Under the pieces are notes generated by a model. The model had not been told where the DNA came from. It ran no database searches and worked only from the letters and a program-made list of their open reading frames with translations. The position numbers were made by a program, and so were the translations under genes. This document shows, in pieces, positions 21,124 through 43,935 of a stretch of DNA of 64,000 nucleotides (its first letter is position 1; every line of letters begins with the position of its first letter). The stretch covers positions 18,264 through 82,263 of the forward strand of contig JAZQIQ010000016.1 of NCBI GenBank assembly GCA_045541195.1. The letters are read 5' to 3'. Origin of the DNA: Acetatifactor sp. (GTDB lineage: Bacteria; Bacillota; Clostridia; Lachnospirales; Lachnospiraceae).

Positions 21124-21124
21124 A

Positions 21125-22708: not shown

Positions 22709-22756
22709 TAGATTAATGCTCCATATTTTATAAAATTACGATACAAACCATCTTAT

Positions 22757-22786
22757 ATAATGGCATAAATAGACGAGACTTGTCAA
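22757..22786 (-). promoter_or_regulatory. Promoter for the AlgX-like/MBOAT operon
   Basis: Minus strand TTGACA-N18-CATTAT with TG extension. Confidence 0.5.
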
Positions 22787-22895
22787 TGTGTTTGTCCTTT
22801 CTCTGTGGTTAAGGTTTTGGAGATTGGCTATTGTTGCGGGGAGAAGAGTATGATAGACTTTGGATATATAATAAAGTTCAGAAGGCGAGTGTGTA

Positions 22896-24017
22896 ATGCA
22901 GATACGAAAGAATGAGAATAATAAGATATATTGCATAGACGGATTAAAGGGAATCGGTGCATGTTTGATTGCATTTGTATGGCATTACCAGCATTTTGCA
23001 CCCCAGGCAGGTTCTCCGTTTTATCGTTTGTTTTCGCTTTTTTATGACCGCGGAGACCGGGTTGTAGAGCTGTTTTTCTTATTATCCGGCTTGGGGATTG
23101 CCCTGGGCTATCAGAAGAAGATTTTAGAAGGGAAGATTTCCTTCAATAAGTTTATGTTTAAGAGAGTGGAGAAGCTTTTCCCCTTAATGTGGCTTACCTT
23201 ATTGATAACCACAGTATTGCAATTCGTTCATATAGCTCTGAACGGAGCTACTTTTGTTTATCCCTATTTTGATTTGTATCATTTTGTTCTGAACGTATTT
23301 GGATTACAGAATACATTTATTGGTATGCAATGGTCCTTCAATTCGCCCTCGTGGTGTATCAGTATACTTTTGGTTTGCTATGTTCTCTATTACATGGTGG
23401 TGAATGGAAGCAGGGGGAAAGAGGAAGGGTATCTCTGGCTGAAATATGTGGGAATCAGTCTTTTGGGAGTGATGATTTACATCTCCAGACTGGATTTTAC
23501 AATTATTAATCCTATCATTGGGCGGGGCTTATCCTGTTTCTTTTTGGGAGTATTGATTGCTGGAATATATGAGCAGAGGGAGCGGTTGTTTACACAGCGC
23601 ATTGGGTATCTTTGCCTGGTATTTTTAATTGCCTGTTGGCTGCTGATTCGAAGATTTGGATATCAGGTGTCCGGTGATTTTGATTTACTGGTAATATTGG
23701 GACTGGTGCCTGCGGTGGTAATATGTGTGCTGTTTATACCGTGGCTGAATAAGTTTTTCTCTCTTGCTCCGTTTGTGTATCTGGGGAAGATATCCTTTGG
23801 CATATATTTGTGGCATTTTCCGGTACAGTGTGTGTGGAGGATTGCAGAGCTCTTACTGGGCGTTTCCGTTAATTATTCCAGCAGAGTTATCTGGTTATTA
23901 TATGCTTTGTCTGTGCTTGTGGTGGCAACGTTGTATGATGAATTGGTACAGAATGGTGTCAACAAAGTGTGGACGTTATTTTTGCGTGGAGACACCGGGG
24001 AAAAGAATGGAGAGTAG
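22896..24017 (+). CDS. Acyltransferase family 3 (OafA/OatA-like) membrane protein
   Basis: IDGLKGI, VELFFLLSG, KRVEKLFP, NSPSWCIS, LGKISFGIYLWHFP. Confidence 0.9.
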   Translation: MQIRKNENNKIYCIDGLKGIGACLIAFVWHYQHFAPQAGSPFYRLFSLFYDRGDRVVELFFLLSGLGIALGYQKKILEGKISFNKFMFKRVEKLFPLMWLTLLITTVLQFVHIALNGATFVYPYFDLYHFVLNVFGLQNTFIGMQWSFNSPSWCISILLVCYVLYYMVVNGSRGKEEGYLWLKYVGISLLGVMIYISRLDFTIINPIIGRGLSCFFLGVLIAGIYEQRERLFTQRIGYLCLVFLIACWLLIRRFGYQVSGDFDLLVILGLVPAVVICVLFIPWLNKFFSLAPFVYLGKISFGIYLWHFPVQCVWRIAELLLGVSVNYSSRVIWLLYALSVLVVATLYDELVQNGVNKVWTLFLRGDTGEKNGE

Positions 24018-24021
24018 ATGT

Positions 24022-24060
24022 AAAAAGAGCATTTACGCTAAGGCGTGAAGGCTCTTTTTT
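24022..24060 (+). terminator. Intrinsic terminator
   Basis: AAAAAGAGC-ATTTACGC-TAAG-GCGTGAAG-GCTCTTTTTT. Confidence 0.75.
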
Positions 24061-24073
24061 ATTCGGAAAAACG

Positions 24074-24102
24074 TTGCGGACAGGAAAAAGGTGCGGTATA
24101 AT
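24074..24102 (+). promoter_or_regulatory. sigma-A promoter of the GLUG/DUF4214 gene
   Basis: TTGCGG-N17-TATAAT, RBS GGAGG at 24124-24128. Confidence 0.62.
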
Positions 24103-24133
24103 CATGAGGAAAAAGTACTATATGGAGGCACGT

Positions 24134-26872
24134 ATGAAAGTTTTAAAGAAATGTGTAGTAGCTCTTCTGATTTGTGTGATGTTAGTGATGGATAGAATTC
24201 CCACAAATGCCGGGGCAATAATATACATATCATCAGAGAGTGAGTTAAGGCAGATTGCAGATAAACCCAAAGGGAATTATGTGCTTACGAATGACATTGT
24301 GCTCAGTGACGGTCAGTGGCAGCATTTGGGATTTTTCAGCGGAACACTTGATGGAGCCGGTTATACGATTTCTAATTTGAATTCGGTGGATTATGGATTG
24401 TTTTGGGGACTGGAAGAAGGGGCTGTAGTACAGAATCTGACGATTTCCGGTACGATTAACGGAGAACCATCGTCTACCGGACTTCTGGCAGATAGTTCAG
24501 CCGGTACAATTCTAAATTGTACTTCTAAGGGAAGTATTCAATTGTGGAATGCAGCAACCGGAGGCGGACTGGTAGGATTTAACTATGGGCATATGGAGAA
24601 TTGTACCAATGAAGCGGATATTACTAACGGAGAAGGTGGTGTTGCCGGAAATAATATCGGTAGCATGGTGAATTGTGTAAATAAAGGAGATATTGTTTCC
24701 GACAGTATGCATCCCGGAGGCGTTGCCGGAATAAACAATCGCCTGATGGTTGGATGTGAGAATTATGGAAGTATCACAACTACTTTAGCAAATGAAGGAT
24801 GGGGACTTGCAGCGGGTGGTATTACCGGAAGCAACTGTGGTCTGATTTACCAATGTATCAATTCTGGAACGGTTGAACAGCCTGTAATTCGAGGCGCGGC
24901 GATTGGTGGTATTACTGGAAATATGACACACTATGCGCAGGTTATCGAGTGTGAGAATACAGGGGAATTATCTGGTATAGGCGACGTGGCTGGTATCTGT
25001 GGAGAAGCATCTTTAGATTTAGGACACTTTGATGAAAATGGCGTATTTGTAACGCACCCAGGAGAACAAATTATTGCAAATTGTAAGAATAGCGGGGCGC
25101 TTACTGCAATTAGTAAGAACTACTATTCTGCATGTGGCGCTGGTATTGTAGCTGATATTACAGTTGTAGGAGGAAAGGTCCAGATACTAAATTGTGAGAA
25201 TATTGGAAATATTACCGGTACCGGTATTGATCTGGGCGCAGACTGCGGTGGCGCAGTAGGTACGGTGCGTATGAGTGAAAACGGAGCGTTGAAGCTTCAG
25301 GGGCTGTATAATAGCGGAGCCATAACAGCGGAGGAATCATCTGCATCAGGCATTATACACTACATGCAGAACGATACAGAAGCAGATATTGAAATGAGTT
25401 TTTGCCAAAATACCGGGAATATTGTGGCGAAAGATGCGAATGGTATTGGTAGTCTATCGAATCATTGTTTGGTAGAATATTGTAGTAATCTCGGAAATGT
25501 CACAGGTGTATATAATGCCAATGGTATAACAGCGCTCACCCGTACTGGGATGAAGATTTTCAATTGTTACAATTTAGGTATTCTCACTGGTCAATGGGTT
25601 GTGGGCTTGAGTAATGGTGGTGTAGAATCGCCGTTAATGCGTAATTGTTATGTCTACGGAGAATTACAGGGCACGAATAGCGAGTATATCAGTGAGCAAA
25701 GTGGGAATCTGATTATGGAGAATTGCTACTATATGCAGCAGGAATTCTTAAATGACCAGGAAATGGGAACTGCACTTTCCGCAGAAGATATGGAGAAGCA
25801 GAGCTCTTATGTGGGGTTTGATTTTGATAATGTATGGGAGATGAGGGAGCAGAATGGTAAGATGCTTCCGGCACTGAAAATAACTCCTGAGAAAGAACCG
25901 GCGAAACTTCAAACGAATGAGCTTGCAATCCGAAAGGGTGAGTTTTTCACTGCACCTGCCACAGAAGGTACTGTGATTGAGGTTTACTCTGATAATGAAA
26001 CTGTGTTATCTGATGATAAAGATGGTAATTTGGAGGCAGTGGAATTAGGTAAGTGTACAGTGTACTGCGTATTCTCGGATGGACAGGTAATCCCTTGTAC
26101 AGTATATGTTTCCAATACAGGAAATATCCCTATAGAGCCTTCGGAAGAGATAATTGCATTTGTGGAAAGAATGTATACCGTTGTACTTGGACGTGAGGCA
26201 GAAAAGGATGGTTTGGAATTCTGGTCGGCTGCATTGGCAAATTATGAAATTGATGGTGCAGGACTTTCAGGAAAATTTGTATTAGGTTGGGAATTTATTG
26301 CAAAGGATTTGAGCGATGATGCTTTCTTGGATGTTATGTATCAGACTTTCTTTGGTAGAACCGGAGATGAGAGCGGGAAGTCGTATTGGATGAGTGCATT
26401 GTCCCAGGGAACCGAACGCCCGGCGGTTCTGGCGAGCTTTGTAAATTCAGAAGAATTCAGTGCTATCTGTGACAGATATAAGATAGCAAGAGGAACCATG
26501 CAGCCGGATGGAAGGGTAGAGTATAATAAGGGCGTTAGAGATTTTGTGCTTCGAATGTATGAAAAGGTACTTGAGCGAGATGGTGAGACAATGGGTGTTG
26601 AGTATTGGACCAACGAAATCCTGCAGGACCGTGCAACACCGGAATTCGTGGCAAAAGAGTATTTCCACTGTGAGGAATATCTGAATAAGAATACGACGAA
26701 CGCACAATATGTGGAAACACTCTATCAGGCCTTTATGGATAGAACATCCGAAGGTGACGGTAAAGAGTACTGGGTCGGTCTGTTGGAGAGTGGAGTGAGC
26801 AGAGATACGGTATTGGAAGGTTTTGCATACTCTGAGGAATTTAAAAATATCATGGCGCAATATGGACTGTAA
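24134..26872 (+). CDS. Secreted GLUG-repeat/beta-helix protein with Ig-like domain and C-terminal four-repeat DUF4214-type module
   Basis: Signal peptide MKVLKKCVVALLIC; YVLTNDIVL, FSGTLDGAGYTISNL; repeated GGxxGxNxGxxxNCxNxGxI; ends ...AQYGL; true start ATG 24134. Confidence 0.78.
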   Translation: MKVLKKCVVALLICVMLVMDRIPTNAGAIIYISSESELRQIADKPKGNYVLTNDIVLSDGQWQHLGFFSGTLDGAGYTISNLNSVDYGLFWGLEEGAVVQNLTISGTINGEPSSTGLLADSSAGTILNCTSKGSIQLWNAATGGGLVGFNYGHMENCTNEADITNGEGGVAGNNIGSMVNCVNKGDIVSDSMHPGGVAGINNRLMVGCENYGSITTTLANEGWGLAAGGITGSNCGLIYQCINSGTVEQPVIRGAAIGGITGNMTHYAQVIECENTGELSGIGDVAGICGEASLDLGHFDENGVFVTHPGEQIIANCKNSGALTAISKNYYSACGAGIVADITVVGGKVQILNCENIGNITGTGIDLGADCGGAVGTVRMSENGALKLQGLYNSGAITAEESSASGIIHYMQNDTEADIEMSFCQNTGNIVAKDANGIGSLSNHCLVEYCSNLGNVTGVYNANGITALTRTGMKIFNCYNLGILTGQWVVGLSNGGVESPLMRNCYVYGELQGTNSEYISEQSGNLIMENCYYMQQEFLNDQEMGTALSAEDMEKQSSYVGFDFDNVWEMREQNGKMLPALKITPEKEPAKLQTNELAIRKGEFFTAPATEGTVIEVYSDNETVLSDDKDGNLEAVELGKCTVYCVFSDGQVIPCTVYVSNTGNIPIEPSEEIIAFVERMYTVVLGREAEKDGLEFWSAALANYEIDGAGLSGKFVLGWEFIAKDLSDDAFLDVMYQTFFGRTGDESGKSYWMSALSQGTERPAVLASFVNSEEFSAICDRYKIARGTMQPDGRVEYNKGVRDFVLRMYEKVLERDGETMGVEYWTNEILQDRATPEFVAKEYFHCEEYLNKNTTNAQYVETLYQAFMDRTSEGDGKEYWVGLLESGVSRDTVLEGFAYSEEFKNIMAQYGL

Positions 26873-26892: not shown

Positions 26893-26930
26893 AAAAAGAA
26901 GTCTCTTCCTTTTGGGAGAGACTTCTTTTT
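26893..26930. terminator. Bidirectional terminator
   Basis: AAAAAGAAGTCTCT-TCCTTTTGGG-AGAGACTTCTTTTT between convergent genes. Confidence 0.85.
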
Positions 26931-26948: not shown

Positions 26949-29300
26949 CTATAAACCGTACGTAGCCTTAATCTGCTGGAATTCCGCACAAGCTGCAAAA
27001 CTGTTCATTACGGTCTTTCGGTCTACACCGCCTTCTAATGCAGCTTTCCATGCATCGATTCCGGCCGGATCAGCTTCACGATCCATAAAGGTCTTGTACA
27101 GAGCATTTATAAATTCTTTATCGGAAGTGTTCTTTGCTAAATATTCTCCTGACCAGAAGAAGTTTTCTGCGGCTACTTCCGGAGTACATCCGCCGCTTGC
27201 AATTGCTGTTGTCCAGCTTTCAATACCAGCTTCATCACCTTCACGTTCTAAAATTGTAGAATAAAGTCTTTCTGCAAATCGATAAATACCGGGAGTTACA
27301 GCGTTTCCATCCTCATACAGGTAGCCACGGGAGATTCCATACTCTCTACATAAGTTAAAGAACTCCGGTGAATTTACAAATCCGGCTAAAACCGCTTCTC
27401 TGCTAGCACCGCTTTCTAATACACTGCTCCAGAATGATTCTCCGGCTTCGTCAAGTTCTCTGTTGAAGTAGGTATGATATAAAATCTCAATAAATTCGCT
27501 GTTGCTATAGTTATATCCGATAAACTCAGAACCTAAAATGAATCCCTTGGAAATACTAGCTCCATCATCTACATAACTGTAAAGATTGTTCACCCAAAAT
27601 TCAACACCGCTTGGATCTGCATCACGACCAAGTGCTACGGTATACATACGCTCCACAAATGCCTTGAGCTGAGCTTCTGCAGGGTCCACAGGAGACTCTG
27701 TGGGGCTGGTGGTCGGAGCAGGAGTAGAAGTTGGGGCTGGGCTCGGAGTTGGGCTCGGAGTTGGGCTCGGAGTTGGGCTCGGAGTTGGGCTCGGAGTCGG
27801 ACTCGGAGTTGGAGTCGGGCTTGGAGTCGGAGTTGGGCTCGGAGTTGGGCTCGGAGTTGGGCTCGGAGTTGGGCTCGGAGTCGGACTCGGAGTCGGAGTT
27901 GGGCTCGGAGTTGGAGTCGGGCTTGGAGTCGGAGTTGGGCTCGGAGTTGGACTCGGAGTCGGAGTTGGGCTCGGAGTTGGGCTCGGAGTTGGAGTCGGGC
28001 TTGGAGTCGGAGTTGGGCTCGGAGTCGGACTCGGAGTTGGAGTCGGGCTTGGAGTCGGAGTTGGACTCGCCGTTGGAGCCGGAGTACTCTCGACACCACC
28101 ATTTATAACAATATATGTAACATCTTCGTACGTGACGGTTGCAGGTGGATTATCTCCTTCAATGGCGGTAACTAATAAATCACCTAAAGAAGAATTCACA
28201 TTTACTTTGAAGTATGTATGCCCATCTACTGTGAAGTAAGGAGAAGTATAGTACTGACCATTAAGCATATCGTACTTTGTATCAACTTCCATACCCTCGA
28301 AATACTTATGGATTAAATGGGAACTGCTCTGGTCCTGCGCTAAAAATGTAGTGCGGCTCTTGTTATACATTTTGTAATAATAACCATCCGGATAGTAGGT
28401 GTGATATTCTTCTTTAAGATCATTCCAGGTGGGGTCAGTTTCATACCAGGTGTCATGGAGCTTTACATAATTCCAGGCATGATTACTGCTGATTACTACA
28501 ACAGAGTCAACTCCGACTGCATTGGCGAGTATGGTTAATGCCTTGGCATAACCTGCACATACGGTACGTCCCATACAGACCATACTATAGGCGGACTGGT
28601 CGTATAGATTGCTGTTTTCATCTTCTAAATCATCGTAATCGTAGACTGTGTTTGTACACACGATGGAATGAGCAAGATGTAACTTATCTTCCGGTCGCTC
28701 TTTTGTATTAATCTGTGATACCCACTTATCTATCTGAGAGGTGAACTCTTCTGTATAGGTGGCACGGTCTGCGCCGGTCTGAAATGCATCGTATAAATAT
28801 AATGCGCCGCCTACGGCGTTTCCGTTTCCATCATGGTAGTAAGAAATTCTATTCTCCAAAAAATAATATTGAGGATTGCTGTATTGGAAGAGGAACATGA
28901 TCGTAGTAAGTCTATCTATTGAAACGGAAGTCGGAATAGAAAGCATTGGAGACTTACTGTAATCAACGTCTGAGGTAGCGCATGTCAGGCAGAATTCCTC
29001 CATATTCTTCCAGAATGCCTTCTCGTTATCATCTAAAAAATTGTAGTAATAATCACCACCGAAGCTTGTCCAGTAAGCCCTATCTTCTTCAGATATAGAA
29101 GAAGTATCATCCATCAGAGACGGTGTACTTACAAGGTCATCGATGGAAAGCTCTGTAACGGTAATGGGTTTTAAACCGGTTGGATACTGAAACTCAGGGA
29201 GTTCTTTTGTGGAAGCATAGGACGGTAAGGGAACCGAAGTCAGTAAAAGCCCTGCTACCAAAGAAAGGGTAATAGCTAGTTTTTGGAATCTCTTAAACAT
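26949..29300 (-). CDS. Secreted transglutaminase-like (Cys-His-Asp) protein with long PS/PT linker and DUF4214-type module
   Basis: Signal peptide; TVCAGYAK...NHAWNYV...WYETD; more than 110 aa of PTPS repeats; ends ...ATYGL; start ATG 29300. Confidence 0.85.
27729..28068 (-). repeat. Intragenic tandem repeat encoding (PTPS/PTPT)n linker
   Basis: 6/12-nt units (GGGCTCGGAGTT on +) plus four copies of a 30-nt unit GGAGTTGGAGTCGGGCTTGGAGTCGGAGTT at 27805, 27907, 27985, 28033. Confidence 0.95.
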
Positions 29301-29318
29301 ATACATTTCTCCTTTTTG

Positions 29319-29344
29319 ATTAATAGGAAATTTTTCCTATTAAT
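29319..29344. promoter_or_regulatory. Perfect 12-bp inverted repeat between -10 and RBS (candidate operator or leader hairpin)
   Basis: ATTAATAGGAAA-TT-TTTCCTATTAAT. Confidence 0.55.
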
Positions 29345-29373
29345 TGTATACCAAGTGTGTATGAAACATCAAG
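29343..29373 (-). promoter_or_regulatory. Promoter of the 26949-29300 gene
   Basis: CTTGA-N18-TATACAAT on minus strand; same motif and spacing upstream of the next paralog. Confidence 0.6.
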
Positions 29374-29397
29374 AATTTTTAGAAAATAAGTAAAAAA

Positions 29398-29421
29398 ACA
29401 CAGTGGCATGCGCCACTGTGT
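29398..29421 (-). terminator. Intrinsic terminator of the 29435-31369 gene
   Basis: ACACAGTGGC-ATGC-GCCACTGTGT, T-run follows on the minus strand. Confidence 0.8.
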
Positions 29422-29434
29422 CTTGTATTAAATC

Positions 29435-31369
29435 TTATAAACCATACTGTGCCATGATTGCTTTGAACTCACCGGACTGAGCAAAGCTGCTAAGTACGGT
29501 CTGGCGGGTGGTGCCGGAACACATAGAATTCTTCCATGCGATAAGTCCGTCTGCATCCGCTTCACGTCCCATGAAGGTTCTGTAGAGAGCCATGATGTAT
29601 TTTTCATCATTGGTCTGTTTTGCTAAATATTCATCTCCATTGAAGAAGCTCATAGCAGCTGCTTCCGGAGTGCATCCACGGGTGTAAAGTGTTAAGGTCC
29701 AGTATTCAATACCGTCTTTGTCTCCGGGTCTTTCAAGAATCTTGCTGTAAAGTCTCTCAGAGAACTGATAAATACCGGTGTTGATGGTGTTACCGTCTGC
29801 AAGCATATATCCTCTGGAGATTCCGTAGTTTCCACATAAATTGAAGAACTCTGCAGAATTTACAAAGCCTGCGAGTACAGCAGCTCTGCTGTTACCGGCA
29901 TTGATAACGCTCTTCCAGTAAGCTAAGCCGTCTGCGTCAGCAGTTCTGCTGAAGAAGGTGTTGTATAATACTTTGATATAATCGTCATCGCTGTAATTTT
30001 TCGCAGTGAATTCTCCACCTAAGAGGAATTCCTTTGCAAGGGAGGCACCATCTGCGGTCTTTGCAACTAAAAGGTTGGTCCAGAAATCAACTCCGGAAGC
30101 ATCTGCAGTACGTCCAAGTGCAACAGTGTACATACGCTCCACGAATGCTTTTACCTGAGCTACAGCTTCAGCACTTGTTCCACTTGCAGAAGCGTCGCTT
30201 CCACCGATAACAGAGTATACGGAATTGTTGTAATTCACAGTGAGTGGCAGCGCAGCAGTTATTTCAAGCGGTCTTACCATAACCTCACCAAGAGCGGAAT
30301 TTGCGTTTAAAACGAAATAGATATTTCCGCCGTTTCCAAAATAAGGACTTACATAGTCATATCCAAGCATGGTGTCATATGGTGTAGCAGGAACCGTACT
30401 TGCGTAGTGTGCTTCAAGAACATGGGATTCGCCCATATATGTATTTACAAAGGTAGAACGGCTCTTGTTGTAATAGTCATAATAAAGGTAGCTGCTGTCC
30501 GGATCATCCCATGTAATATCCAGCTCATACCACATACCGTGGAGATTAACATAGTTCCAAGCATGGTCAGAACTGGTAACAGCAAATGCTTCAATGCCGG
30601 CAGCCTTACATAAGATAGAAGCTGACTTCGCATATCCGGCACATACAGTCTTGCCAAGGCAAATCATACTGTAAGCAGACTGATCGTGATCATTATATTC
30701 ATATATGGTGTTAAGGGCGATGATATCGTGAATCATCTTAACCTTTTCTTCCGGTCTGGTACACTTGTTTACTTCTGCTGTCCATGCGTTGATAGTAGCA
30801 CAGAACTGCTCGCTTGCAGCTGCTCTTGCAGCACCATTTAAGAACTCATCATAGAAAATGAGGCAGAATGCACTACCGTCTGTGTAGTATCCAACACGGG
30901 AATCCAGGAAATAGTACTGAGGGTTGCTATACTGGAACATAAATAAAACATCCAGAACTCGATACATATCAATCTGAGTACTGTTCTGAATCCAAGGAAG
31001 GATACCGATATTGCTTTGAGCATATGCAGGATAATCTGCAGTAGTTGTAGCGTAAGTGAGACAGATCTGCTCAGCAGTATCCCAGATAAGTTTCTCAGCA
31101 GCAGAAAGCTGATTGTAGAAATAATCACTGCTGAACTGGCTCCAGTATGCAGCATCAGCCTCTTTTACAACATAAGTTTCGCTAAAATGCTTCTGTGATG
31201 GTGCACTTGGTGCCAAAGAAGCATCCATAGGAAGAGCGGTGAGCTGTTCGGTACCTCTCTTGTCCTCAAGATTTCTACCTGATGCTGCTGCCTGAATTGG
31301 TACAAACTGAAGCAATAATGTGGCAACCAGCACAAAGGTAAGTGATAGTTTTTTAATGCGTTTAAACAT
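29435..31369 (-). CDS. Secreted transglutaminase-like protein with DUF4214-type module (paralog 2)
   Basis: TVCAGYAK...DHAWNYV...WYELD; ends ...AQYGL. Confidence 0.85.
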   Translation of the reverse strand: MFKRIKKLSLTFVLVATLLLQFVPIQAAASGRNLEDKRGTEQLTALPMDASLAPSAPSQKHFSETYVVKEADAAYWSQFSSDYFYNQLSAAEKLIWDTAEQICLTYATTTADYPAYAQSNIGILPWIQNSTQIDMYRVLDVLFMFQYSNPQYYFLDSRVGYYTDGSAFCLIFYDEFLNGAARAAASEQFCATINAWTAEVNKCTRPEEKVKMIHDIIALNTIYEYNDHDQSAYSMICLGKTVCAGYAKSASILCKAAGIEAFAVTSSDHAWNYVNLHGMWYELDITWDDPDSSYLYYDYYNKSRSTFVNTYMGESHVLEAHYASTVPATPYDTMLGYDYVSPYFGNGGNIYFVLNANSALGEVMVRPLEITAALPLTVNYNNSVYSVIGGSDASASGTSAEAVAQVKAFVERMYTVALGRTADASGVDFWTNLLVAKTADGASLAKEFLLGGEFTAKNYSDDDYIKVLYNTFFSRTADADGLAYWKSVINAGNSRAAVLAGFVNSAEFFNLCGNYGISRGYMLADGNTINTGIYQFSERLYSKILERPGDKDGIEYWTLTLYTRGCTPEAAAMSFFNGDEYLAKQTNDEKYIMALYRTFMGREADADGLIAWKNSMCSGTTRQTVLSSFAQSGEFKAIMAQYGL

Positions 31370-31408
31370 GAAAAAAACTCCTTTCTATATAGTAAATTTA
31401 TCTTGTAC

Positions 31409-31439
31409 ATTGTATACCCAATATATGAGAAAGTTCAAG
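31409..31439 (-). promoter_or_regulatory. Promoter of the 29435-31369 gene
   Basis: CTTGA-N18-TATACAAT on minus strand. Confidence 0.6.
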
Positions 31440-31486
31440 GATTTTTTATATAAATTAAAATGAGCGATAAATCCTTGTCAACGGGG

Positions 31487-33403
31487 CTATAAACCATACT
31501 GTGTCATGATAGCTTTAAACTCAGCAGATTGTGCAAAACTGCTGAGGATGGTCTGGCGGTTGGTGCCGGAACCTATAGAATTTTTCCAGGCGATAAGACC
31601 GTCTGCATCTGCTTCTCGCCCCATGAAAGTTCGATAAAGAGCCATGATATATTGCTCGTCATTGGTCTGTTTGTTTAAATACTCATCTCCATTGAAGAAA
31701 CTTATAGCCGCAATTTCAGGAGTACATTCGCGGGTATAAAGTGCTAAGGTCCAGTGTTCGATACCATCCTTGTCACCGCCACGTTCCAGAATCTTGCTGT
31801 AAAGTCTCTCAGCAAACTGATAAATTCCGGAATTGATTGTGTTGCCATCCGGAAGGAGATATCCTCTGGTAATTCCATACTCTCCACACAACGAGAAGAA
31901 CTCGGCGGAATTTACAAATCCTGCGAGTACAGCTTCTCTGCTGTTGCCGGCGTCGATAATGCTTTTCCAATATGCTAAGCCATCTGCATCAGCTGTTCTG
32001 TTGAAGAAGGTATTATACAATACTTTAATGAATTCATCATCGTTATAGTTCTTGGCGGTAAATTCCTGACCAAGGAGGAATTCTTTGGAGAGAGAAGCTC
32101 CGTCAGCTGTTTTGGTTACCAGAAGATTGGTCCAAAAATCAACGCCGGAAGCATCTGCGTCACGCTCCAGTGCAACGGTGTACATACGCTCCACAAAGGC
32201 TTTTACCCGGGCAACAGCTTCGTCGCTTGTGCCGCCGGTAGAATTGTCAGAGCCGCCAATTACGGTATAAACCATGTCATTGTAAGTGACAGAGGCCGGT
32301 AAAACGCTGCTTCCGCCTAAGCATCGTACTATTGGTTCGCCCAAGTCAGGATTGGCATTTACTATAAAGTAGGTATTACTATCAGAGGTAAAGCATGGAT
32401 TCGTATAGTACATAGAAAAAACCATCATGTCATAAGGGCAATAAGCCTTCATACCCTGCAACATTTCTACTGTAACATGAGATTCCAAAGCATCGTTTGC
32501 TAACATGGTAGAGCGGCTTTTGTTGTAATAATCGTAGTAAATCTCTGAATCGTAATCCGTGTCTGCCCAGGTGGCATCTGTCTGATACCACACACCATAA
32601 AGATTTACAATATTCCAGGCATGGTTTGAACTGGTTTCAAAGCAGGTCTCTACACCAACCGCATTACCTAATATGGAAAGTGCCTTGGTATAACCGGCGC
32701 ATACAGTTTGTTCCAGACAGACCATGCTGTATGCGGACTGGTCATATAGATTTTCCCCATATTCAGTATGCAGACACACAATATCATGTGCGCGTTTGAA
32801 TCGTTGCTCCGGTGTGTTTTCCTTCATGATTTCGGTAACCCAAGCATCGATTTTGGAAGTAAATTCTTCTGTATAGGTTGCTCTGGTTGCCCCGTCCTCG
32901 AAGAAATTGTACATTGTGAGGGAGGCTTTGTTGCTGCCATCCGTGTAAAACATGATATTTGCATCCAGAAAATAATACTGCGGATTACTATAAATGAAAG
33001 TAAACATAATGTCCTTCATGCGCTTCTCCGAAATGGAAGGTGCATAAGAAACCCACTGAAAATCAGGATATGTAGCTGTGGTGGTAGCATAGGTAAGACA
33101 TACATTTTCCAAAGCATCCCAGAAATTCTTTTCTGCGGTGTTCAGTTGGTTATAGTAGAAATCGTTGCTGAATTTTGTCCAGTACTCCCTATCTTCCTGT
33201 TTGATATTGTCGTTTATATGGAAGTACTTGTCTTTTGAGGCAGAAGCAGAATCTACCGGGATAGCCACAAAGGGCTTGAGACCGTTCTTATCCGAAAGGT
33301 TTCTGCCGGTCTGTGCTGCAGATACCTGAACGGGAACCGCCGGAAGCAGTAGTCCTGACATAAGTATGGAAGTAACTAATAATAATTTAATTCGTTTAAA
33401 CAT
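31487..33403 (-). CDS. Secreted transglutaminase-like protein with DUF4214-type module (paralog 3)
   Basis: TVCAGYTK...NHAWNIV...WYQTD; ends ...TQYGL; start ATG 33403 behind AAGGAG. Confidence 0.85.
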   Translation of the reverse strand: MFKRIKLLLVTSILMSGLLLPAVPVQVSAAQTGRNLSDKNGLKPFVAIPVDSASASKDKYFHINDNIKQEDREYWTKFSNDFYYNQLNTAEKNFWDALENVCLTYATTTATYPDFQWVSYAPSISEKRMKDIMFTFIYSNPQYYFLDANIMFYTDGSNKASLTMYNFFEDGATRATYTEEFTSKIDAWVTEIMKENTPEQRFKRAHDIVCLHTEYGENLYDQSAYSMVCLEQTVCAGYTKALSILGNAVGVETCFETSSNHAWNIVNLYGVWYQTDATWADTDYDSEIYYDYYNKSRSTMLANDALESHVTVEMLQGMKAYCPYDMMVFSMYYTNPCFTSDSNTYFIVNANPDLGEPIVRCLGGSSVLPASVTYNDMVYTVIGGSDNSTGGTSDEAVARVKAFVERMYTVALERDADASGVDFWTNLLVTKTADGASLSKEFLLGQEFTAKNYNDDEFIKVLYNTFFNRTADADGLAYWKSIIDAGNSREAVLAGFVNSAEFFSLCGEYGITRGYLLPDGNTINSGIYQFAERLYSKILERGGDKDGIEHWTLALYTRECTPEIAAISFFNGDEYLNKQTNDEQYIMALYRTFMGREADADGLIAWKNSIGSGTNRQTILSSFAQSAEFKAIMTQYGL

Positions 33404-33438
33404 TTTATACTCCTTCCTTTTCAAAAATTTACCCTTTA

Positions 33439-33466
33439 ATTATAACAAATCAGGTGAATTTCGCAA
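33439..33466 (-). promoter_or_regulatory. Promoter of paralog 3
   Basis: TTGCGA-N16-TATAAT with TG extension on minus strand. Confidence 0.55.
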
Positions 33467-33486
33467 TGTAAATTGCCATAAAATAA

Positions 33487-33525
33487 AGTACGGACTGTAA
33501 TGCGTTACGCATTACAGTCCGTACT
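33487..33525 (-). terminator. 18-bp perfect hairpin overlapping the stop of paralog 4
   Basis: AGTACGGACTGTAATGCG-TTA-CGCATTACAGTCCGTACT; T-rich tail on minus strand. Confidence 0.75.
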
Positions 33526-35419
33526 CGCTTTTGATTCCCTGAAATTCTGTAGATTGTGCGAATACGTCTAAAAGTGTTTCACGGCTGATTCCGTTTTGCA
33601 GGTAACTCTTCCAGAAGGAAAGTCCTTCCACATCAGCTTCCCGGGCTACAAAGGTACGGTATAATGTTATGATATACTTTTCGTCAGAGGTCTGTTTGTT
33701 TATGTATTCCGGGGAGTGGAAAAAGTTTTGTGCAGCACCTTTCGGGGTATAAGTGCCGGAAGAAATAAGGATTGTCCAATAATCGATTCCGTCCCGGTCA
33801 CCGTCTCTTTCAAGGATGGTAGTGTAGAGTCTGGTTGCAAAGCGGTAGATTCCGGCATTGACTGCAACACCGTTGGTTTTCATCAGACCGCGGGAAATAC
33901 CATATTCTTTACATAGGTCAAAAAACTCGGAAGAATTGACAAAGCCAGCCAACACATCTTCTCTGGAAGCATTGTTTTGCAGTAGACTGTTCCAATAAGA
34001 AAGACCGGCGGCGTCTGCTTCCCGGTTAAAGAAGGTACTGTATAATATTTGAATATATTTGGTATTGTCACAGCTTTGGGCAGTAAATTCCGGGCTTAAG
34101 ATAAAGCTTTGCGCAAGACCGGCGCCATCCTGTCTTCCGGAGACTAACAGCTCGGCCCAGAAGCTGACTCCGCTGGCATCCGCAGTCCGTCCCAGTGCGA
34201 TTGTGTACATGCGTTCCACAAAACTATATATCTTTGTCAGAGCTTCTTTGTCCGGCGTTTTCGTAGTGAAGGGGGATGCTGCCCCTACGACCGTATAGAT
34301 TGCCCCCTGATAGGTAATGGTTTCGGGTAAGGTGTCTGTTCCGTAAAGTCCTGTCACCAGCAAATCACCCAGGGAGGAATTCCGGTTAACAATGTAATAC
34401 GTGTTGTTACCGTAGATGAAATACGGGGAAATGTAATTGGTACCGGAGATGAGGTCGTAGGGGGTGGCTGGGATCATTCCCTGATAAATATTGGCTATAT
34501 TATGATCCATATATTTGTCTGCTAAAAGGGTAATACGGCTTTTGCAGTAAAAGTCATAGTAGCAGTTGCTTGAGTAACCGTCATCGCAGGCCGCGTCCAG
34601 TTCATACCATACACCATGGAGCTTTACGATATTCCATGCGTGGTTACTTCCGGATATGATTGCGGATTCAATCCCTACGGCATTACTTAGCATAGAGAAT
34701 ACTTTCGCGTAACCGGTACATGTAGTCTTTCCCAGACAGGCCATGCTGTATGCGGATTGATCGTATTCGTTATAGGTATAGCTTGTATTTTTACATACAA
34801 TATCATGCGCCAATTTCACTTTCTCCTCCGGCTTGGAAGAGGTGTTAAAACGTGCAACCCAAGTATCGATTATTGAAGTGAATGCATCGGTGTAAGAAGC
34901 TCTGGTTTCACCATCACGGAACTTGGAATAGAGTGACAGGGAACCGCCACCTGGGGAATAGGTGATATACGGCTCCAGAAAATAGTACTGTGGATTACTG
35001 TAAATAAACAAAGTCATTATGGTACGAATCCGGGATGTGGGAATGGAGTCTGCGCAGGAAATCCAGGAGATTCCGGAAAAATCGATGTCCGTAGTTGCCA
35101 GCGTAATGCAAAAGGACTCCATGGAATCCCAGAATTCTTTTTCGCTTACGGATAAATAGTTGTAATAATAATCGCTGCTGAATTTGGTCCAGTAGGCGCG
35201 GTCAGCGTCTGTATATTTATGTATGTCAATATTGTATTGGGGGGAAGAATATTTGTAGGATGAGGATTCATCCAATAAAACGGCGGTAACAGGCTCAAAA
35301 CCGGCACGTTCACTGCAAGAGTGCACTCCCTCAGGTGCAGCAGAGACAGAGAGCGGTTGTGACAGAAGATTTATTATGAGAATCGTAGTTAATATTACTT
35401 TTTTGATACCTTTCAACAT
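33512..35419 (-). CDS. Secreted transglutaminase-like protein with DUF4214-type module (paralog 4)
   Basis: TTCTGYAK...NHAWNIV...WYELD; ends ...SEYGL; start ATG 35419. Confidence 0.85.
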   Translation of the reverse strand: MLKGIKKVILTTILIINLLSQPLSVSAAPEGVHSCSERAGFEPVTAVLLDESSSYKYSSPQYNIDIHKYTDADRAYWTKFSSDYYYNYLSVSEKEFWDSMESFCITLATTDIDFSGISWISCADSIPTSRIRTIMTLFIYSNPQYYFLEPYITYSPGGGSLSLYSKFRDGETRASYTDAFTSIIDTWVARFNTSSKPEEKVKLAHDIVCKNTSYTYNEYDQSAYSMACLGKTTCTGYAKVFSMLSNAVGIESAIISGSNHAWNIVKLHGVWYELDAACDDGYSSNCYYDFYCKSRITLLADKYMDHNIANIYQGMIPATPYDLISGTNYISPYFIYGNNTYYIVNRNSSLGDLLVTGLYGTDTLPETITYQGAIYTVVGAASPFTTKTPDKEALTKIYSFVERMYTIALGRTADASGVSFWAELLVSGRQDGAGLAQSFILSPEFTAQSCDNTKYIQILYSTFFNREADAAGLSYWNSLLQNNASREDVLAGFVNSSEFFDLCKEYGISRGLMKTNGVAVNAGIYRFATRLYTTILERDGDRDGIDYWTILISSGTYTPKGAAQNFFHSPEYINKQTSDEKYIITLYRTFVAREADVEGLSFWKSYLQNGISRETLLDVFAQSTEFQGIKSEYGL

Positions 35420-35614: not shown

Positions 35615-35683
35615 GAGAGCAATTAAGATAAAATGTAATATTGGAAAATTATGTTTATTATTAAGAAAGAAGAGGATATTAAA

Positions 35684-36718
35684 ATGAAAAATGCTTTAAT
35701 TACCGGTATTAATGGTCAGGACGGTTCTTATTTAGCAGAACTTTTATTGGAGAAGGGCTATAATGTATATGGCATTATGAGAAGAAAGGCTGTTGTTGAC
35801 TACGGCAATGCAGAGCACTTAAAGGACAAGGTTCACTTTATCTATGCAGATATGACTGACGTTGTTTCTTTGATTAACGCTATGAGAATCTCTGATGCAG
35901 ATGAAGTGTACAACCTTGCAGCACAGTCATTCGTAGCTACCTCATGGGAACAGCCTCTTGCAACAGCTCAGATTGACGCTGTTGGTGTAACCAATATGTT
36001 GGAAGCTATCAGAACCGTAAAGCCTTCTTGCCGTTTCTATCAGGCATCTACTTCAGAGATGTTTGGTTTAGTGCAGGAGATTCCACAGAAGGAGACTACT
36101 CCTTTCTACCCAAGAAGTCCTTATGGTGTAGCTAAGTTATACGGTCATTGGATTACCAAGAACTATAGAGAGAGTTATGACATGTATGCTTGTTCCGGTA
36201 TCTTATTCAATCACGAAAGTGAGAGAAGAGGTAAGGAATTCGTTACCCGTAAGATTACCGATGCAGTTGCACGTATCAAATTAGGTGTACAGGATCATTT
36301 AGAGTTAGGTAACATGGATTCTAAGCGTGACTGGGGTCACTCTAAGGATTATGTTTACGCTATGTGGTTAATGCTTCAGCAGGAAACTCCGGATGATTAT
36401 GTGGTAGCTACCAACGAGACCAGAACTGTTCGTGAGTTCGTAGAAACTGCATTTGCAAAGGCAGGCATCACTGTAGAGTGGTCAGGAACAGGTGTAGATG
36501 AGGTTGGTAAGGATGCAGCTACCGGTAAGGTAATCGTTAAGGTGAATAAAGACTTCTTCAGACCTGCAGAGGTAGATATCTTAATCGGTGATCCTTCAAA
36601 GGCTGAGAAGAACCTTGGTTGGGTTCGTCAGATTCCGTTCGACGAATTAGTAGAGCGTATGGTTAAGAACGATTTAGAATTAGTTCGTAAGGAAATCGCT
36701 TATAAGAATATTCAGTAA
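35684..36718 (+). CDS. gmd: GDP-mannose 4,6-dehydratase
   Basis: ALITGINGQDGSYLAELLLEKGY, NLAAQSFV, YQASTSEMFG, PFYPRSPYGVAK, LFNHES, KRDWGH; start ATG 35684. Confidence 0.96.
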   Translation: MKNALITGINGQDGSYLAELLLEKGYNVYGIMRRKAVVDYGNAEHLKDKVHFIYADMTDVVSLINAMRISDADEVYNLAAQSFVATSWEQPLATAQIDAVGVTNMLEAIRTVKPSCRFYQASTSEMFGLVQEIPQKETTPFYPRSPYGVAKLYGHWITKNYRESYDMYACSGILFNHESERRGKEFVTRKITDAVARIKLGVQDHLELGNMDSKRDWGHSKDYVYAMWLMLQQETPDDYVVATNETRTVREFVETAFAKAGITVEWSGTGVDEVGKDAATGKVIVKVNKDFFRPAEVDILIGDPSKAEKNLGWVRQIPFDELVERMVKNDLELVRKEIAYKNIQ

Positions 36719-36723
36719 TGTGC

Positions 36724-36757
36724 GAAAAGGAATTCTGAAAAGAATTCCTTTTCTTTT
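36724..36757 (+). terminator. Intra-operon terminator-like hairpin between gmd and rmd
   Basis: GAAAAGGAATTCT-GAAA-AGAATTCCTTTTC followed by TTTT. Confidence 0.7.
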
Positions 36758-36771
36758 GAAGGGAAAAGAAT

Positions 36772-37710
36772 ATGAAAAAAGGGTTGGTTATTGGTGCAGC
36801 AGGCTTTGTTGGTAAGTATCTTTTAGAGGAAATGCATGCTTCCGGAATGGAATGTTATGCAACAAAGCTGGCGCATGAGAAACTGGAAATATCGTATACA
36901 ACCGTGTATGATCTGGATATTATGAGCAAGGAGGATATTTTATCACTCCTTTTTGAGGTGCGTCCGGACTATATTTTCCATCTGGCTGCCCAGAGTTCTG
37001 TGGGGCTTGCGTGGAAGAATCCGGGACTTACGGTAGACATTAATATTAAAGGCAGTCTGAATGTGATGGATGCCATTCGTGAACTGGATTATAAGCCTCG
37101 TGTGCTTCTGATTGGTTCCGGTGAGGAATATGGTCATATCAGACCGGGAGAGACTCCCATTACGGAAAATAATCTTCTTCGACCGGGTAATATTTATGCG
37201 GCAACCAAGGCTTGTCAGAATATGATTGGTAATATTTATTCCAAAGCATATGATATGGAGCTGATGATGGTCCGTGCGTTTAATCATATCGGACCGGGAC
37301 AGGCACCCATGTTTGTAGTATCTGACTTCTGTAAGCAGGTGGCTGAGATTGAAAAGGGACTCCGGGAACCGGTGATGAAGGTTGGAAATCTCGCCGCAAA
37401 GCGTGATTTTACAGATGTTCGTGATGTGGTAAAGTCCTATGTGAAGCTGGTGGCAGCAGGACGGGCCGGTGAGACCTATAACGTTGGTAGCGGTAATGCG
37501 AAGGCGATTCAGGAGATTCTGGATATGATTGTATCTATGTCTACTGCTACGATTAATGTGGAAATCGATCCTGCTAAGCTTAGGCCTGTGGATGTACCGA
37601 TTATTGAGGCTGATATTGCCAAGATTAAGGAGCTTACCGGATGGGAACCGAAGATTCCGTTAGAGCAGACAATTCAGGAGACTCTGGACTATTGGCGTGC
37701 TAACTTATAG
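36772..37710 (+). CDS. rmd: GDP-4-dehydro-6-deoxy-D-mannose reductase-like SDR
   Basis: VIGAAGFVG, HLAAQSSV, GSGEEYG, YAATK, RAFNHIGPGQ, RDFTDVRDVV; follows gmd; no Fcl-like gene in window. Confidence 0.78.
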   Translation: MKKGLVIGAAGFVGKYLLEEMHASGMECYATKLAHEKLEISYTTVYDLDIMSKEDILSLLFEVRPDYIFHLAAQSSVGLAWKNPGLTVDINIKGSLNVMDAIRELDYKPRVLLIGSGEEYGHIRPGETPITENNLLRPGNIYAATKACQNMIGNIYSKAYDMELMMVRAFNHIGPGQAPMFVVSDFCKQVAEIEKGLREPVMKVGNLAAKRDFTDVRDVVKSYVKLVAAGRAGETYNVGSGNAKAIQEILDMIVSMSTATINVEIDPAKLRPVDVPIIEADIAKIKELTGWEPKIPLEQTIQETLDYWRANL

Positions 37711-37720
37711 GAGGTGTTTT

Positions 37721-38605
37721 ATGAGAAGTGACGGATTATTTCAAACCAATGATGTAACGAAGTCGGACAGATATCTTCATACGCCCAGCAGTTTTGCAAG
37801 ACAGAATCTTTTATATGTGCAGGAAGTGGGCAGACTTACCAGTTTAAATCAGCATAGATGTATTCGTGAAGGTCTGGATTCCCTGCTTTTGATGGTTGTA
37901 TTAAAAGGAAAGGGCGTTCTTACAATAAAGGATAAGGAATATAATATGTCAGCGGGGAATATTGCGTTGATAGATTGTAGAGAGCACTATGAGCATATTA
38001 GTGATGTGGAGGATGCATGGACATTATGCTGGGTGCATTTTAACGGTGTTTCTGCAAGAAATTATTATGAGCTCTTTTTAAAGTATAGCAAGGGTGTAAA
38101 TGTATTTTCTGTAGAGGATACGTTTGTCTGGGAGAATACAATCGATTCTTTGATGGGAAAGCAGCAGAATAAGAGTGTCATTGCTGAAATGCAATGCGGA
38201 GAGTTGCTTTTAAAACTTCTAAGTGATACAATCAGTCATGTTGCTGATGCATCCATTCTTCGAGATGAAGAGAACCGAAAGCTGGTTCAGGATGTGAGAG
38301 AATATCTTCATGAGAATTATGCAGAGACAGATGTGGTTCAGAAGGCAGGAGAGATGCATTCTTTTTCCTGTGAGGCATTGAATCATTTGTTCCGAGAATA
38401 CTTTGGCATGACTATGGAAGAATATGTGAGCAATAGACGGTTCTTAGTTGCAAAAGAGTTACTTCGATTCTCCATTAAGTCTGTGGCTGAGGTGGCACAG
38501 GAATCCGGTATTCGTGATGTGATTGCCATGCAACAGATGTTTTACGATAAAGAGAATATGACCGCTGATGAATACCGTAGCAGATGGGCACAGTGGATCA
38601 GATAA
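37721..38605 (+). CDS. AraC family regulator (cupin-type sensor + divergent HTH)
   Basis: N-terminal LLMVVLKGKG...CWVHFNG; C-terminal LFREYFGMT...AKELLRFS...AEVAQESG; start ATG 37721 behind GAGGTG. Confidence 0.8.
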   Translation: MRSDGLFQTNDVTKSDRYLHTPSSFARQNLLYVQEVGRLTSLNQHRCIREGLDSLLLMVVLKGKGVLTIKDKEYNMSAGNIALIDCREHYEHISDVEDAWTLCWVHFNGVSARNYYELFLKYSKGVNVFSVEDTFVWENTIDSLMGKQQNKSVIAEMQCGELLLKLLSDTISHVADASILRDEENRKLVQDVREYLHENYAETDVVQKAGEMHSFSCEALNHLFREYFGMTMEEYVSNRRFLVAKELLRFSIKSVAEVAQESGIRDVIAMQQMFYDKENMTADEYRSRWAQWIR

Positions 38606-38622
38606 TTGAGGAAGGCAGAAGA

Positions 38623-39933
38623 ATGAATATTGTTTTATTATCCGGTGGTTCCGGCAAAAGACTTTGGCCCTTGTCCAATGACATTCGATCAAAGCAATTT
38701 ATTAAGATCTTCAAGAAAGAGAATGATGAGTATGAATCCATGGTGCAGAGAGTGTATCATCAGATTCAGGAAGTGGATAAGGATGCAACCGTCACCATTG
38801 CTACTTCTAAGACCCAGGTTTCAGCAATTCGTAATCAGTTGGGTGAGCAGGTGGGTATCTGTGTGGAGCCTTGCAGAAGAGATACTTTCCCTGCAATTGC
38901 TCTGGCAACAGCATACTTACATGATGTACAGGGAATTTCAGAGGATGACTCCGTGGTAGTATGTCCTGTGGATCCTTATGTAAATACGGATTATTTTGAG
39001 GCGTTGAAGGAGCTGGGAAGACTTGCACAGGAGGGGGATGCCAATCTTGTGCTGATGGGTATTGAACCTACCTATCCAAGTGAGAAATACGGATATATCA
39101 TTCCTACCGATAAAGAGCAGGTAAGTAAGGTAGATACCTTTAAGGAGAAGCCGGATGCAAAGACCGCAGAAGAGTATATCTCTCAGGGGGCACTTTGGAA
39201 CGGTGGTGTTTTTGCATACAAGTTAAAGTATGTTCTTGAGAAGGCGCATGAGTTGATTGATTTTGTGGATTATCAGGATTTGTTTAACAAGTATGATACA
39301 CTGACCAAAATCAGCTTTGACTATGCAGTAGTTGAGAAAGAAGATAATATTCAGGTGCTCAGATTTGGCGGTGAATGGAAGGATTTGGGAACCTGGAATA
39401 CCTTAACCGAAGCTATGTCGGAGAACACTATCGGTAAGGTAATGTACAACGACAAGTGTGAGGACATTCATGTTATCAATGAATTGGATGTGCCGGTGCT
39501 TTGTATGGGTGTAAAGGATGTAATCGTATGTGCCAGTGCAGAAGGTATCCTGGTATCGGACAAGGAGCAGTCTGCGGCAATTAAGCCATATGTAGATCAG
39601 ATTGACCAGCAGATTATGTTTGCAGAAAAGTCGTGGGGAAGCTTCCAGGTTATGGATGTAGAGAATGGTAATATGACCATTAAGGTTACCTTAAATCCGG
39701 GGAACTCCATGAATTACCATAGTCATGAAATGCGTGAAGAGGTATGGACAGTTCTCAGTGGTAAGGGCTATGTGGTTCTGGACGGTGAGAAGAAGGCTGT
39801 TCAGACCGGAGATGTAGTAACCATGCCTATCGGCTGTAAGCATACCATTGTTGCGGAGACAGAGCTTAAGGTAATGGAAGTACAGATTGGTTCTGAAATC
39901 AGTGTTCACGATAAGATTAAGTGGGACTTATAA
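38623..39933 (+). CDS. manC: Mannose-1-phosphate guanylyltransferase with C-terminal cupin
   Basis: LLSGGSGKRLWPLS, EPCRRDTFPAI, FKEKP, ISFDYAVVEK, WKDLGTW, EKSWGSF, HSHEMREEVW. Confidence 0.9.
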   Translation: MNIVLLSGGSGKRLWPLSNDIRSKQFIKIFKKENDEYESMVQRVYHQIQEVDKDATVTIATSKTQVSAIRNQLGEQVGICVEPCRRDTFPAIALATAYLHDVQGISEDDSVVVCPVDPYVNTDYFEALKELGRLAQEGDANLVLMGIEPTYPSEKYGYIIPTDKEQVSKVDTFKEKPDAKTAEEYISQGALWNGGVFAYKLKYVLEKAHELIDFVDYQDLFNKYDTLTKISFDYAVVEKEDNIQVLRFGGEWKDLGTWNTLTEAMSENTIGKVMYNDKCEDIHVINELDVPVLCMGVKDVIVCASAEGILVSDKEQSAAIKPYVDQIDQQIMFAEKSWGSFQVMDVENGNMTIKVTLNPGNSMNYHSHEMREEVWTVLSGKGYVVLDGEKKAVQTGDVVTMPIGCKHTIVAETELKVMEVQIGSEISVHDKIKWDL

Positions 39934-43917: not shown

Positions 43918-43935
43918 TAGGGAGACAAGGTTGCT

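Follow-up and report, generated by a model that had tools for sequence, protein, structure and literature searches.

In the pneumococcal choline-binding proteins, the Cwp proteins of Clostridioides difficile (three CWB2 repeats) and the SLH proteins, the ligand of the anchor is a wall glycopolymer, and one non-covalent anchor module is common to many secreted proteins with different heads. A similar organization was found in a stretch of 64,000 nucleotides from Acetatifactor sp., a member of the Lachnospiraceae (GenBank assembly GCA_045541195.1, contig JAZQIQ010000016.1, positions 18,264 to 82,263), which is referred to here as the window and whose positions are used as coordinates. The window includes a tandem array of four paralogous genes, TG1 to TG4, that code for transglutaminase-like proteins, and a distant fifth copy, TG5. 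Unlike the modules mentioned above, the anchor of these proteins is DUF4214 (PF13946), which has a putative ligand, consists of four helical repeats and is predicted to fold like the phycobilisome linkers.

For segmented filamentous bacteria, DUF4214 has been proposed to anchor proteins at the surface (PMC12780176), and the RTX-DUF4214 protein Psh of Pseudomonas putida KT2440 has been proposed to be seated on the O-antigen (bioRxiv 10.64898/2026.09.02.748959). As in the case of the TG proteins, these are secreted surface proteins found beside surface-glycan genes, for which DUF4214 was proposed as the means of retention. Psh differs, however, in being type-I-secreted, Gram-negative and devoid of an enzyme head, and its binding to the O-antigen was deduced from genetics, neighbourhood and modelling. 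With respect to the catalytic part, the closest solved structure is that of Streptococcus pyogenes TglA (PDB 9CRN, released in 2024), described as a 'transglutaminase-like domain-containing protein', which is homologous to the TG heads over the helical N-domain and the core and shares with them the motifs YY..QLS..E, NP.FY and C.GYA / HAWN / Y.VD.TW.D. TglA differs from them in its fold match (query TM-score, TMq, of only 0.48), has no DUF4214 module and is not known from an array. The transglutaminase of Streptococcus suis (PDB 4XZ7), likewise from a Gram-positive bacterium and either secreted or displayed at the surface, also combines a transglutaminase core with a Cys-His-Asp triad, and it was reported to be active and to have an antiphagocytic role (Yu et al. 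2015, as cited in PMC7567436). Its fold match is weak, its domain set is different and its reported role is host-directed. Local similarity over about 100 core residues was also found to the mycoplasma MAG6410 family lipoproteins (NF045980), but the TG proteins have no lipobox, and membership in this family was rejected because the match is only local and scores 44-60 bits against a cut-off of 450.

An earlier note on this DNA, made from the sequence alone, had described the array as a diversified set of wall-remodelling or surface cross-linking enzymes. That reading was reasonable but unspecific, and it is partly supported by the results presented here, which add the identity of the anchor (DUF4214), the location of the array in a glycan locus and the origin of the anchor likeness in gene conversion. 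The most useful new facts are the domain-limited concerted evolution of the paralogs and their conserved place in the glycan locus. We propose that the TG proteins, uncharacterised members of a known superfamily carrying an anchor with a putative ligand, are glycan-held thiol enzymes that act on peptide amides of the cell envelope, with hydrolysis as the favoured reaction, and we assign to this proposal as a whole a probability of about 0.45.

Architecture of the array and its catalytic heads

The four paralogs, claimed before to lie on the same strand, were found as open reading frames (ORFs) on the minus strand between 26949 and 35419 (Table 1), and all the motifs quoted for them are present: the MFKRIKK-type signal peptide, YWxxFSxDYYYN, YSNPQYYFL, TxCxGYxK, NHAWN and WYExD. 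The ATG codons preceded by a ribosome-binding site, at 29300, 31369, 33403 and 35419, were taken as starts, and database entries of 635 and 638 amino acids are consistent with this choice. All five copies have a common plan, in which a Sec signal peptide is followed by a head of about 340 amino acids (helical N-domain, transglutaminase core and small beta domain), a spacer and a C-terminal DUF4214 module of 245 amino acids. The translations of TG1 to TG4 begin with Sec-type signal peptides in which a basic start precedes a hydrophobic core and an Ala-rich end; a lipobox is absent. The spacer is short in TG2, TG3 and TG4, and only TG1 has a long stalk. The segment behind the signal peptide (amino acids 40-79 of TG4, window 35182-35302, and the same parts of TG1, TG2 and TG3) is poorly conserved, with 10-39% identity, and keeps a short G-x-x-P-x-T-A-x-P-x-D-like strand modelled with a predicted local distance difference test score (pLDDT) of 81-94; it may serve as a pro-segment or dock on the head as a strand. 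The more distant member noticed earlier at 39981 is TG5, whose core is 27-33% identical to those of the array and in which the YSNPQYYFL motif is absent.

Comparison of the heads to Pfam-A at E ≤ 0.01 yielded Transglut_core (PF01841) as the sole family matched, and no other family of the transglutaminase or papain clans. The scores were 28.7 bits for TG1, 35.0 for TG2, 40.0 for TG4 and 42.5 for TG5 (gathering cut-off, 23). TG3 had no PF01841 match at this threshold; nevertheless, all the family motifs are present in the alignment. The Cys-His-Asp triad, which had been described as intact, is invariant in the five proteins. Furthermore, in an alignment of 92 homologs with identities down to 22%, the only invariant columns are those of the Cys, the His, the Asp and a Trp located two residues past the His, an invariance that cannot be due to chance. 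The heads belong to a large family that comprises 1207 clusters (50% identity) at E ≤ 1e-10.

The head of TG4 (amino acids 40-382) was modelled with AlphaFold2 using the 92 homologs (pLDDT, 95.7; predicted TM-score, 0.94). In the model, a helical N-terminal part that includes YW..FS.DYYYN and YSNPQYYFL is followed by an alpha+beta core and then by a small beta domain, an arrangement that corresponds to a predicted papain-like alpha+beta transglutaminase fold. The best Foldseek match was S. pyogenes TglA (E 4.9e-11, 258 columns, 23% identity). Weaker matches were the S. suis transglutaminase (E about 1e-4, TMq 0.28), the putative cysteine protease 3ISR and the transglutaminase-like domain of menin (E about 1e-3 in both cases), and 3KD4 was likewise among the matches. 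A profile of the four heads also found 9CRN by hmmsearch (E 1e-8); the match comprises profile positions 12-211 and covers both the N-domain and the core, indicating at the sequence level that homology within a TglA-like subfamily extends over the two parts. A profile search was needed to reach 9CRN, and 4EHT (E 0.067), the sole PDB match obtained with a single-protein query, was discarded as a chance hit. A phage-lysin origin was unsupported, as a viral structure library and PHROGs gave no informative match. The literature search found no paper on S. pyogenes TglA or 9CRN as a transglutaminase, no published function for it, and no characterised close relative or biochemistry of the head subfamily, in agreement with the earlier statement that none of these enzymes is characterised.

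The copies differ in sequence around the active site. In the TG4 type, composed of TG4 and its orthologs P0007 and P0008, the sequence D-x-[A/F]-C-D-D takes the place of the family-wide D-x-T-W-x-D past the catalytic Asp, and [T/S]-[T/S]-C-[T/V]-G-Y takes that of T-V-C-A-G-Y near the Cys. Both changes are kept in three genomes. Together with the stalk of TG1, these substitutions provide the strongest in-silico indication that substrate or reach may vary among the copies. Elsewhere in the genome there are three additional, distant transglutaminase-core ORFs with no recognisable anchor (C40:449093-450370, C40:462575-464305 and C2:22190-23266). This anchor-less type is the one common to this genome and its congeners, and no close relatives of the TG heads were found in 18 same-genus genomes.

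The DUF4214 anchor and the glycan locus

The DUF4214 profile matches TG1 to TG4 with 148-176 bits, well over its cut-off of 23.2, in three to four stretches per protein. Four sequence repeats make up the tail, and in the model of TG4 amino acids 385-635 (pLDDT, 97.1) they fold into two all-helical domains of about 120 amino acids with two repeats each, the only structural relatives of which are phycobilisome-linker domains. The genome has 128 DUF4214 matches in 35 ORFs distributed over 13 contigs. In 33 of the 35 the 245-amino acid module is C-terminal and ends no more than four residues from the stop codon, and the ORFs with an assembled N-terminus have signal-peptide-like starts. The module is therefore the standard tail of secreted proteins in this species. 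DUF4214 had no match at E ≤ 1e-8 in 25 same-genus genomes, neither SLH nor CW_binding_2 was detected in the assembly, which is 92% complete, and the genome holds four sortases and three LCP ligases. The presence of DUF4214 here as opposed to the congeners points to a species-level change of the surface-anchor system. Besides the TG genes, the sites tied to the module in the window are 2417-4600 and 23969-26872. Two ORFs with identical first 35 residues, close to the last DUF4214 repeats of TG1, are present on two small contigs, one on each (C18:3777-4145 and C43:2192-2560), and may be a further copy or a repeat collapsed in the assembly.

In other organisms DUF4214 tails are found on GH25 lysozyme, M23 peptidase, YkuD transpeptidase, PgdA-type deacetylase, CAP, subtilase and papain domains, and heads of the TG family are found with choline-binding repeats, SLH, ChW, Flg_new, Fn3_assoc/CHB_HEX_C or fn3. 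The combination of these heads with varied anchors, and of DUF4214 with varied wall enzymes, forms a pattern of wall-associated enzymes in which the anchor is swapped between lineages. By its presence in many secreted proteins, its terminal position and its wall-enzyme partners, DUF4214 fits the functional class of non-covalent wall anchors. The gene neighbourhood and the proposals in the literature suggest the binding of a wall polymer as its candidate role.

The window is an ABC-transporter-type glycan-assembly locus, and the array lies inside it. The locus includes genes for an initiating sugar transferase, GT2 and GT4 enzymes, the transporter components Wzm and Wzt, the latter with a Wzt_C domain, a DUF4214-bearing methyltransferase, a GDSL protein and a PMT_2-type membrane protein. 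On one side the array is flanked by the gmd/fcl/AraC/manC block and on the other by glycan O-acylation genes. The same surroundings were found in other organisms. Two-copy arrays in two of them (loci L021/L022, one of which comes from a fallow-deer sample, and L023) occupy the same spot, between Acyl_transf_3 and a gmd/fcl/AraC/manC block that flanks the array alike in L021 and L023, within Wzm/Wzt_C loci. More distant relatives, tandem or single, are located in a glycan locus in L025, where the gene has a choline-binding anchor in common with its neighbours, and likewise in L026. The related records belong to Acetatifactor, Agathobacter, Butyrivibrio and other Lachnospiraceae genome bins. A horizontal-transfer island was considered and rejected, as there was no compositional signal (GC content of 43-46% in the genes and 41.7% in the genome) and the DUF4214 genes are spread over 13 contigs.

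Table 1. Positions of the array genes, anchor regions, terminators and flanking genes in the window (dG, folding free energy).
Feature	Position	Strand	Remarks
TG1	26949-29300	-	783 amino acids: signal peptide, catalytic head, Pro-Thr/Pro-Ser stalk, DUF4214 module
TG1 stalk	27699-28088	-	amino acids 405-534; 130 amino acids, Pro-Thr/Pro-Ser, between head and tail
TG2	29435-31369	-	644 amino acids: signal peptide, catalytic head, short Gly/Ser spacer, DUF4214 module
TG2 anchor-coding part	29438-30181	-	apparently homogenised with TG3 counterpart (31490-32230); break at head/anchor junction, near amino acid 390
TG3	31487-33403	-	638 amino acids, architecture as TG2; ortholog of P0009 in locus L021
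TG4	33512-35419	-	635 amino acids, architecture as TG2; ortholog of P0007 and P0008
TG5	39981-42338	-	785 amino acids: extra N-terminal region, transglutaminase core, Big_2, DUF4214 module
Intrinsic terminator behind TG4	33486-33526	-	19-bp stem and T run; dG -31.7 kcal/mol, z -9.1
Intrinsic terminator behind TG2	29395-29424	-	13-bp stem and T run; dG -20.5 kcal/mol, z -6.0
Bidirectional terminator, TG1 / convergent 967-amino acid DUF4214 gene	26893-26930		dG -21.6 kcal/mol, z -6.1
967-amino acid secreted protein	23969-26872	+	same C-terminal DUF4214 module; convergent neighbour of TG1
GDP-mannose dehydratase, GDP-fucose-synthase-like epimerase, AraC regulator, mannose-1-P guanylyltransferase (ManC)	35651-39933	+	flank the array
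MBOAT, AlgX/SGNH-like protein, Acyl_transf_3	19744-24017		glycan O-acylation genes, other flank

Strong hairpins, each with a T run behind it, were found behind TG4, TG2 and TG1, consistent with the terminators that had been noted after three of the four genes. Each hairpin was compared to 200 shuffles, none of which folded equally well (0/200). The same scan found no comparable hairpin behind TG3. As for the individual promoters, a promoter-like hexamer pair does exist upstream of every array gene, within the spacers of 108-134 nucleotides, and the best candidate is TTGCGA-16-TATAAT with a TG at 33466-33439. However, a consensus promoter scan of the region produced 40 sites, a number at the level of the shuffles (36.5 +/- 5.9), and thus the candidates carry no weight alone. 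Individual promoters are plausible in view of the spacers.

Other features of the locus were recorded. In the window (37697-38605), L021 (6816-7703) and L023 (14039-14926), manC is separated from the GDP-fucose-pathway genes by a gene for an AraC-family regulator, and in L026 such a gene (15347-16207) is directly upstream of gmd. This regulator may control the supply of sugar nucleotides for the glycan. The MBOAT gene is followed by that of a 527-amino acid protein whose AlgX/SGNH-like match is weak (E 1.6e-4, below cut-off; both genes at 19744-22708), and the two look like an O-acetylation pair of the PatA/PatB or AlgI/AlgX type beside the separate Acyl_transf_3 gene. Three long ORFs (471, 494 and 689 amino acids; 42502-45420 and 16227-18296) had no Pfam match at E ≤ 1e-3.

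Separate histories of heads and anchors

The heads of TG2 and TG3 share 51% amino acid identity and their tails 86%, whereas in all other pairs of TG1 to TG4 the heads are 45-52% and the tails 55-59% identical. When orthologs from different genomes were compared the relation was reversed, with heads that are 70% and 66% identical and tails that are 56% and 58% identical. The idea that the anchors are more conserved than the catalytic parts consequently holds within the genome, mainly on account of TG2 and TG3, and fails between orthologs, where these alignments make the head the better conserved part. Neutral evolution of the copies, a possibility that had been raised, was checked by domain-wise identity and the ratio of nonsynonymous to synonymous substitution rates (dN/dS, omega). 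Synonymous sites were saturated in nearly all comparisons (dN, 0.19-0.5), which leaves only bounds and a few values by domain. Where computable, omega was 0.07-0.3, which indicates that the copies are under purifying selection and that none of them drifts neutrally.

Phylogenetic trees of the two parts disagreed. The head tree follows orthology: P0007 and P0008 are the partners of TG4 (support 100/100) and P0009 is that of TG3 (100/99), and TG1 and TG2 fall into the clades of TG4 and TG3, respectively. According to these groupings the four types are older than the split from the L021 organism. The tail tree is arranged by genome instead, with TG2 next to TG3 (100/99) and the two L023 copies together (100/100). 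In approximately unbiased (AU) tests the head data rejected the grouping of TG2 with TG3 (p 4e-4) and that of the L023 pair (p 6e-6), and the tail data rejected the grouping of TG3 with P0009 (p 1e-5); the displacement of the TG4 tail was not significant (p 0.10).

The change in relationship takes place at the junction between head and tail. In sliding windows along TG2 and TG3, nucleotide identity rises there from about 0.50 to 0.80 and third-position identity from about 0.35 to 0.62. The same step is present in the L023 pair, in which nucleotide identity goes from about 0.65 to 0.92-0.97 and third-position identity from about 0.5 to 0.9. As the jump in identity also occurs at silent sites, it speaks for recombination and not merely for stronger constraint, and the junction steps in the two pairs suggest gene conversion limited to the anchor that occurred independently in two genomes. 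These patterns point to conversion of the anchor alone as the source of the high TG2/TG3 anchor likeness.

Proposed function and alternatives

The pathway that we propose would begin with the export of each TG enzyme by the Sec system, after which the DUF4214 tail would hold it non-covalently on the surface glycan of the surrounding ABC-transporter-type locus. The catalytic Cys would attack an amide bond of a cell-envelope peptide to form a thioester, and the resulting acyl-enzyme would be resolved either by water, in which case the protein would be an endopeptidase or amidase, or by an amine, with cross-linking as the outcome. Resolution by water is favoured, at somewhat under even odds, and resolution by an amine seems rather unlikely. 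Selection would have kept the old duplicates while their heads diverged, probably toward different substrates, and gene conversion confined to the anchor would have kept the tails of TG2 and TG3, as well as those of the pair in the second genome, alike, which is consistent with a shared ligand. That the paralogs are diversified surface enzymes, as the earlier note had it, agrees with the triad, the signal peptides, the purifying selection, the conserved TG3 and TG4 orthologs and the TG4-type changes; wall remodelling or cross-linking, and different substrates for the different copies, are activities that we infer.

Several points weigh against this proposal. The binding of glycans by DUF4214 is deduced, also in the literature, from neighbourhood and modelling alone, and the phycobilisome linker, which has the nearest fold, binds protein rather than sugar. 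The S. suis enzyme, the second-best structure match, is described as a transglutaminase, which would favour cross-linking over hydrolysis. The literature search found no biochemical data on close relatives and no paper on 9CRN. A related Acetatifactor pair, L024, sits outside any glycan locus, and the groups compared in the AU tests were chosen after the trees had been seen.

Most bacterial members of the transglutaminase fold with known function are hydrolases, such as the LapG-type proteases, the lasso-peptide B proteins and the pseudomurein endoisopeptidases. This background makes it rather unlikely that the TG proteins are true transglutaminases that introduce Gln-Lys-type isopeptide cross-links between surface proteins, or between protein and peptidoglycan stem peptides, although they belong to the PF01841 superfamily, have the full triad and would find candidate substrates in some 30 co-anchored proteins. 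The outcome in that case, to be regarded as no more probable, would be a surface layer of the many DUF4214 proteins that is built or stiffened by the enzymes. Sequence cannot separate hydrolysis from transamidation, and the presence among the fold matches of 4XZ7, reported to be an active transglutaminase (as cited in PMC7567436), is tempered by the weakness of that match. The conserved position of the genes directs attention to the glycan itself. The heads could act on the glycan of the locus or on its linkage, as a PNGase-like glycoamidase, by taking off or transferring an amino acid or acyl group that is bound through an amide, or by attachment of the polymer. The glycan-locus position is conserved in at least four organisms, repeatedly beside Acyl_transf_3 genes, the fold also takes in N-glycanases and N-acetyltransferases (PMC10318531), and the heads have weak matches to the latter. 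Nevertheless, we find a glycan target improbable: acylation is already served in the locus by MBOAT and AlgX-like, Acyl_transf_3 and GDSL proteins, three LCP ligases are encoded in the genome, organisms with other polymers have same-family heads joined to choline-binding, SLH or ChW anchors, and the L024 pair lacks the association. Two specific versions, the head as acyl-transfer partner of the adjoining Acyl_transf_3 and the head as glycan-to-wall ligase, were downgraded in view of the AlgX-like and GDSL/SGNH proteins of the locus and of the LCP genes, respectively.

The enzymes could also face outward, as surface proteases directed at host or dietary proteins or at the walls of competitors, with the paralogs broadening the range and the stalk of TG1 lengthening the reach. 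The organism is gut-associated, judging by the sources of its relatives, and surface display with variable heads and a long stalk would suit such enzymes. The heads do not resemble any known phage lysin or host-directed protease, however, and their tight and conserved linkage to envelope-glycan genes argues for a role in the envelope, so an outward function is quite unlikely. That the TG proteins are non-catalytic binding proteins, either pseudo-enzymes or adhesins, is very improbable. Some members of the fold are inactive scaffolds, for example menin, which is among the fold matches, but the Cys, His and Asp are retained in every copy and throughout the 92 homologs. A further idea, for which we see only a small chance, is that the heads, rather than being general peptidases, are dedicated to processing or attachment within the DUF4214 system. 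Each of them would trim, cross-link or covalently fix part of the set of approximately 30 DUF4214 proteins, or else a glycan decoration bound through an amide. If this were true, glycan, anchor and enzymes would constitute a single transferable kit for building the surface, present in this species and not found in its congeners.

Gut Firmicutes very commonly have secreted proteins of the transglutaminase fold, and this head alone accounts for more than 1200 sequence clusters. The locus described here is a compact test set, with four diverged heads, one anchor and the genes for the likely ligand adjoining them, and it could yield a function for the head family as well as the first DUF4214 ligand. 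The contrast between the two parts, with heads that track orthology and anchors made alike in each genome, is a clear natural example of domain-limited gene conversion and agrees with the notion that the anchor has to suit a surface polymer specific to the species.

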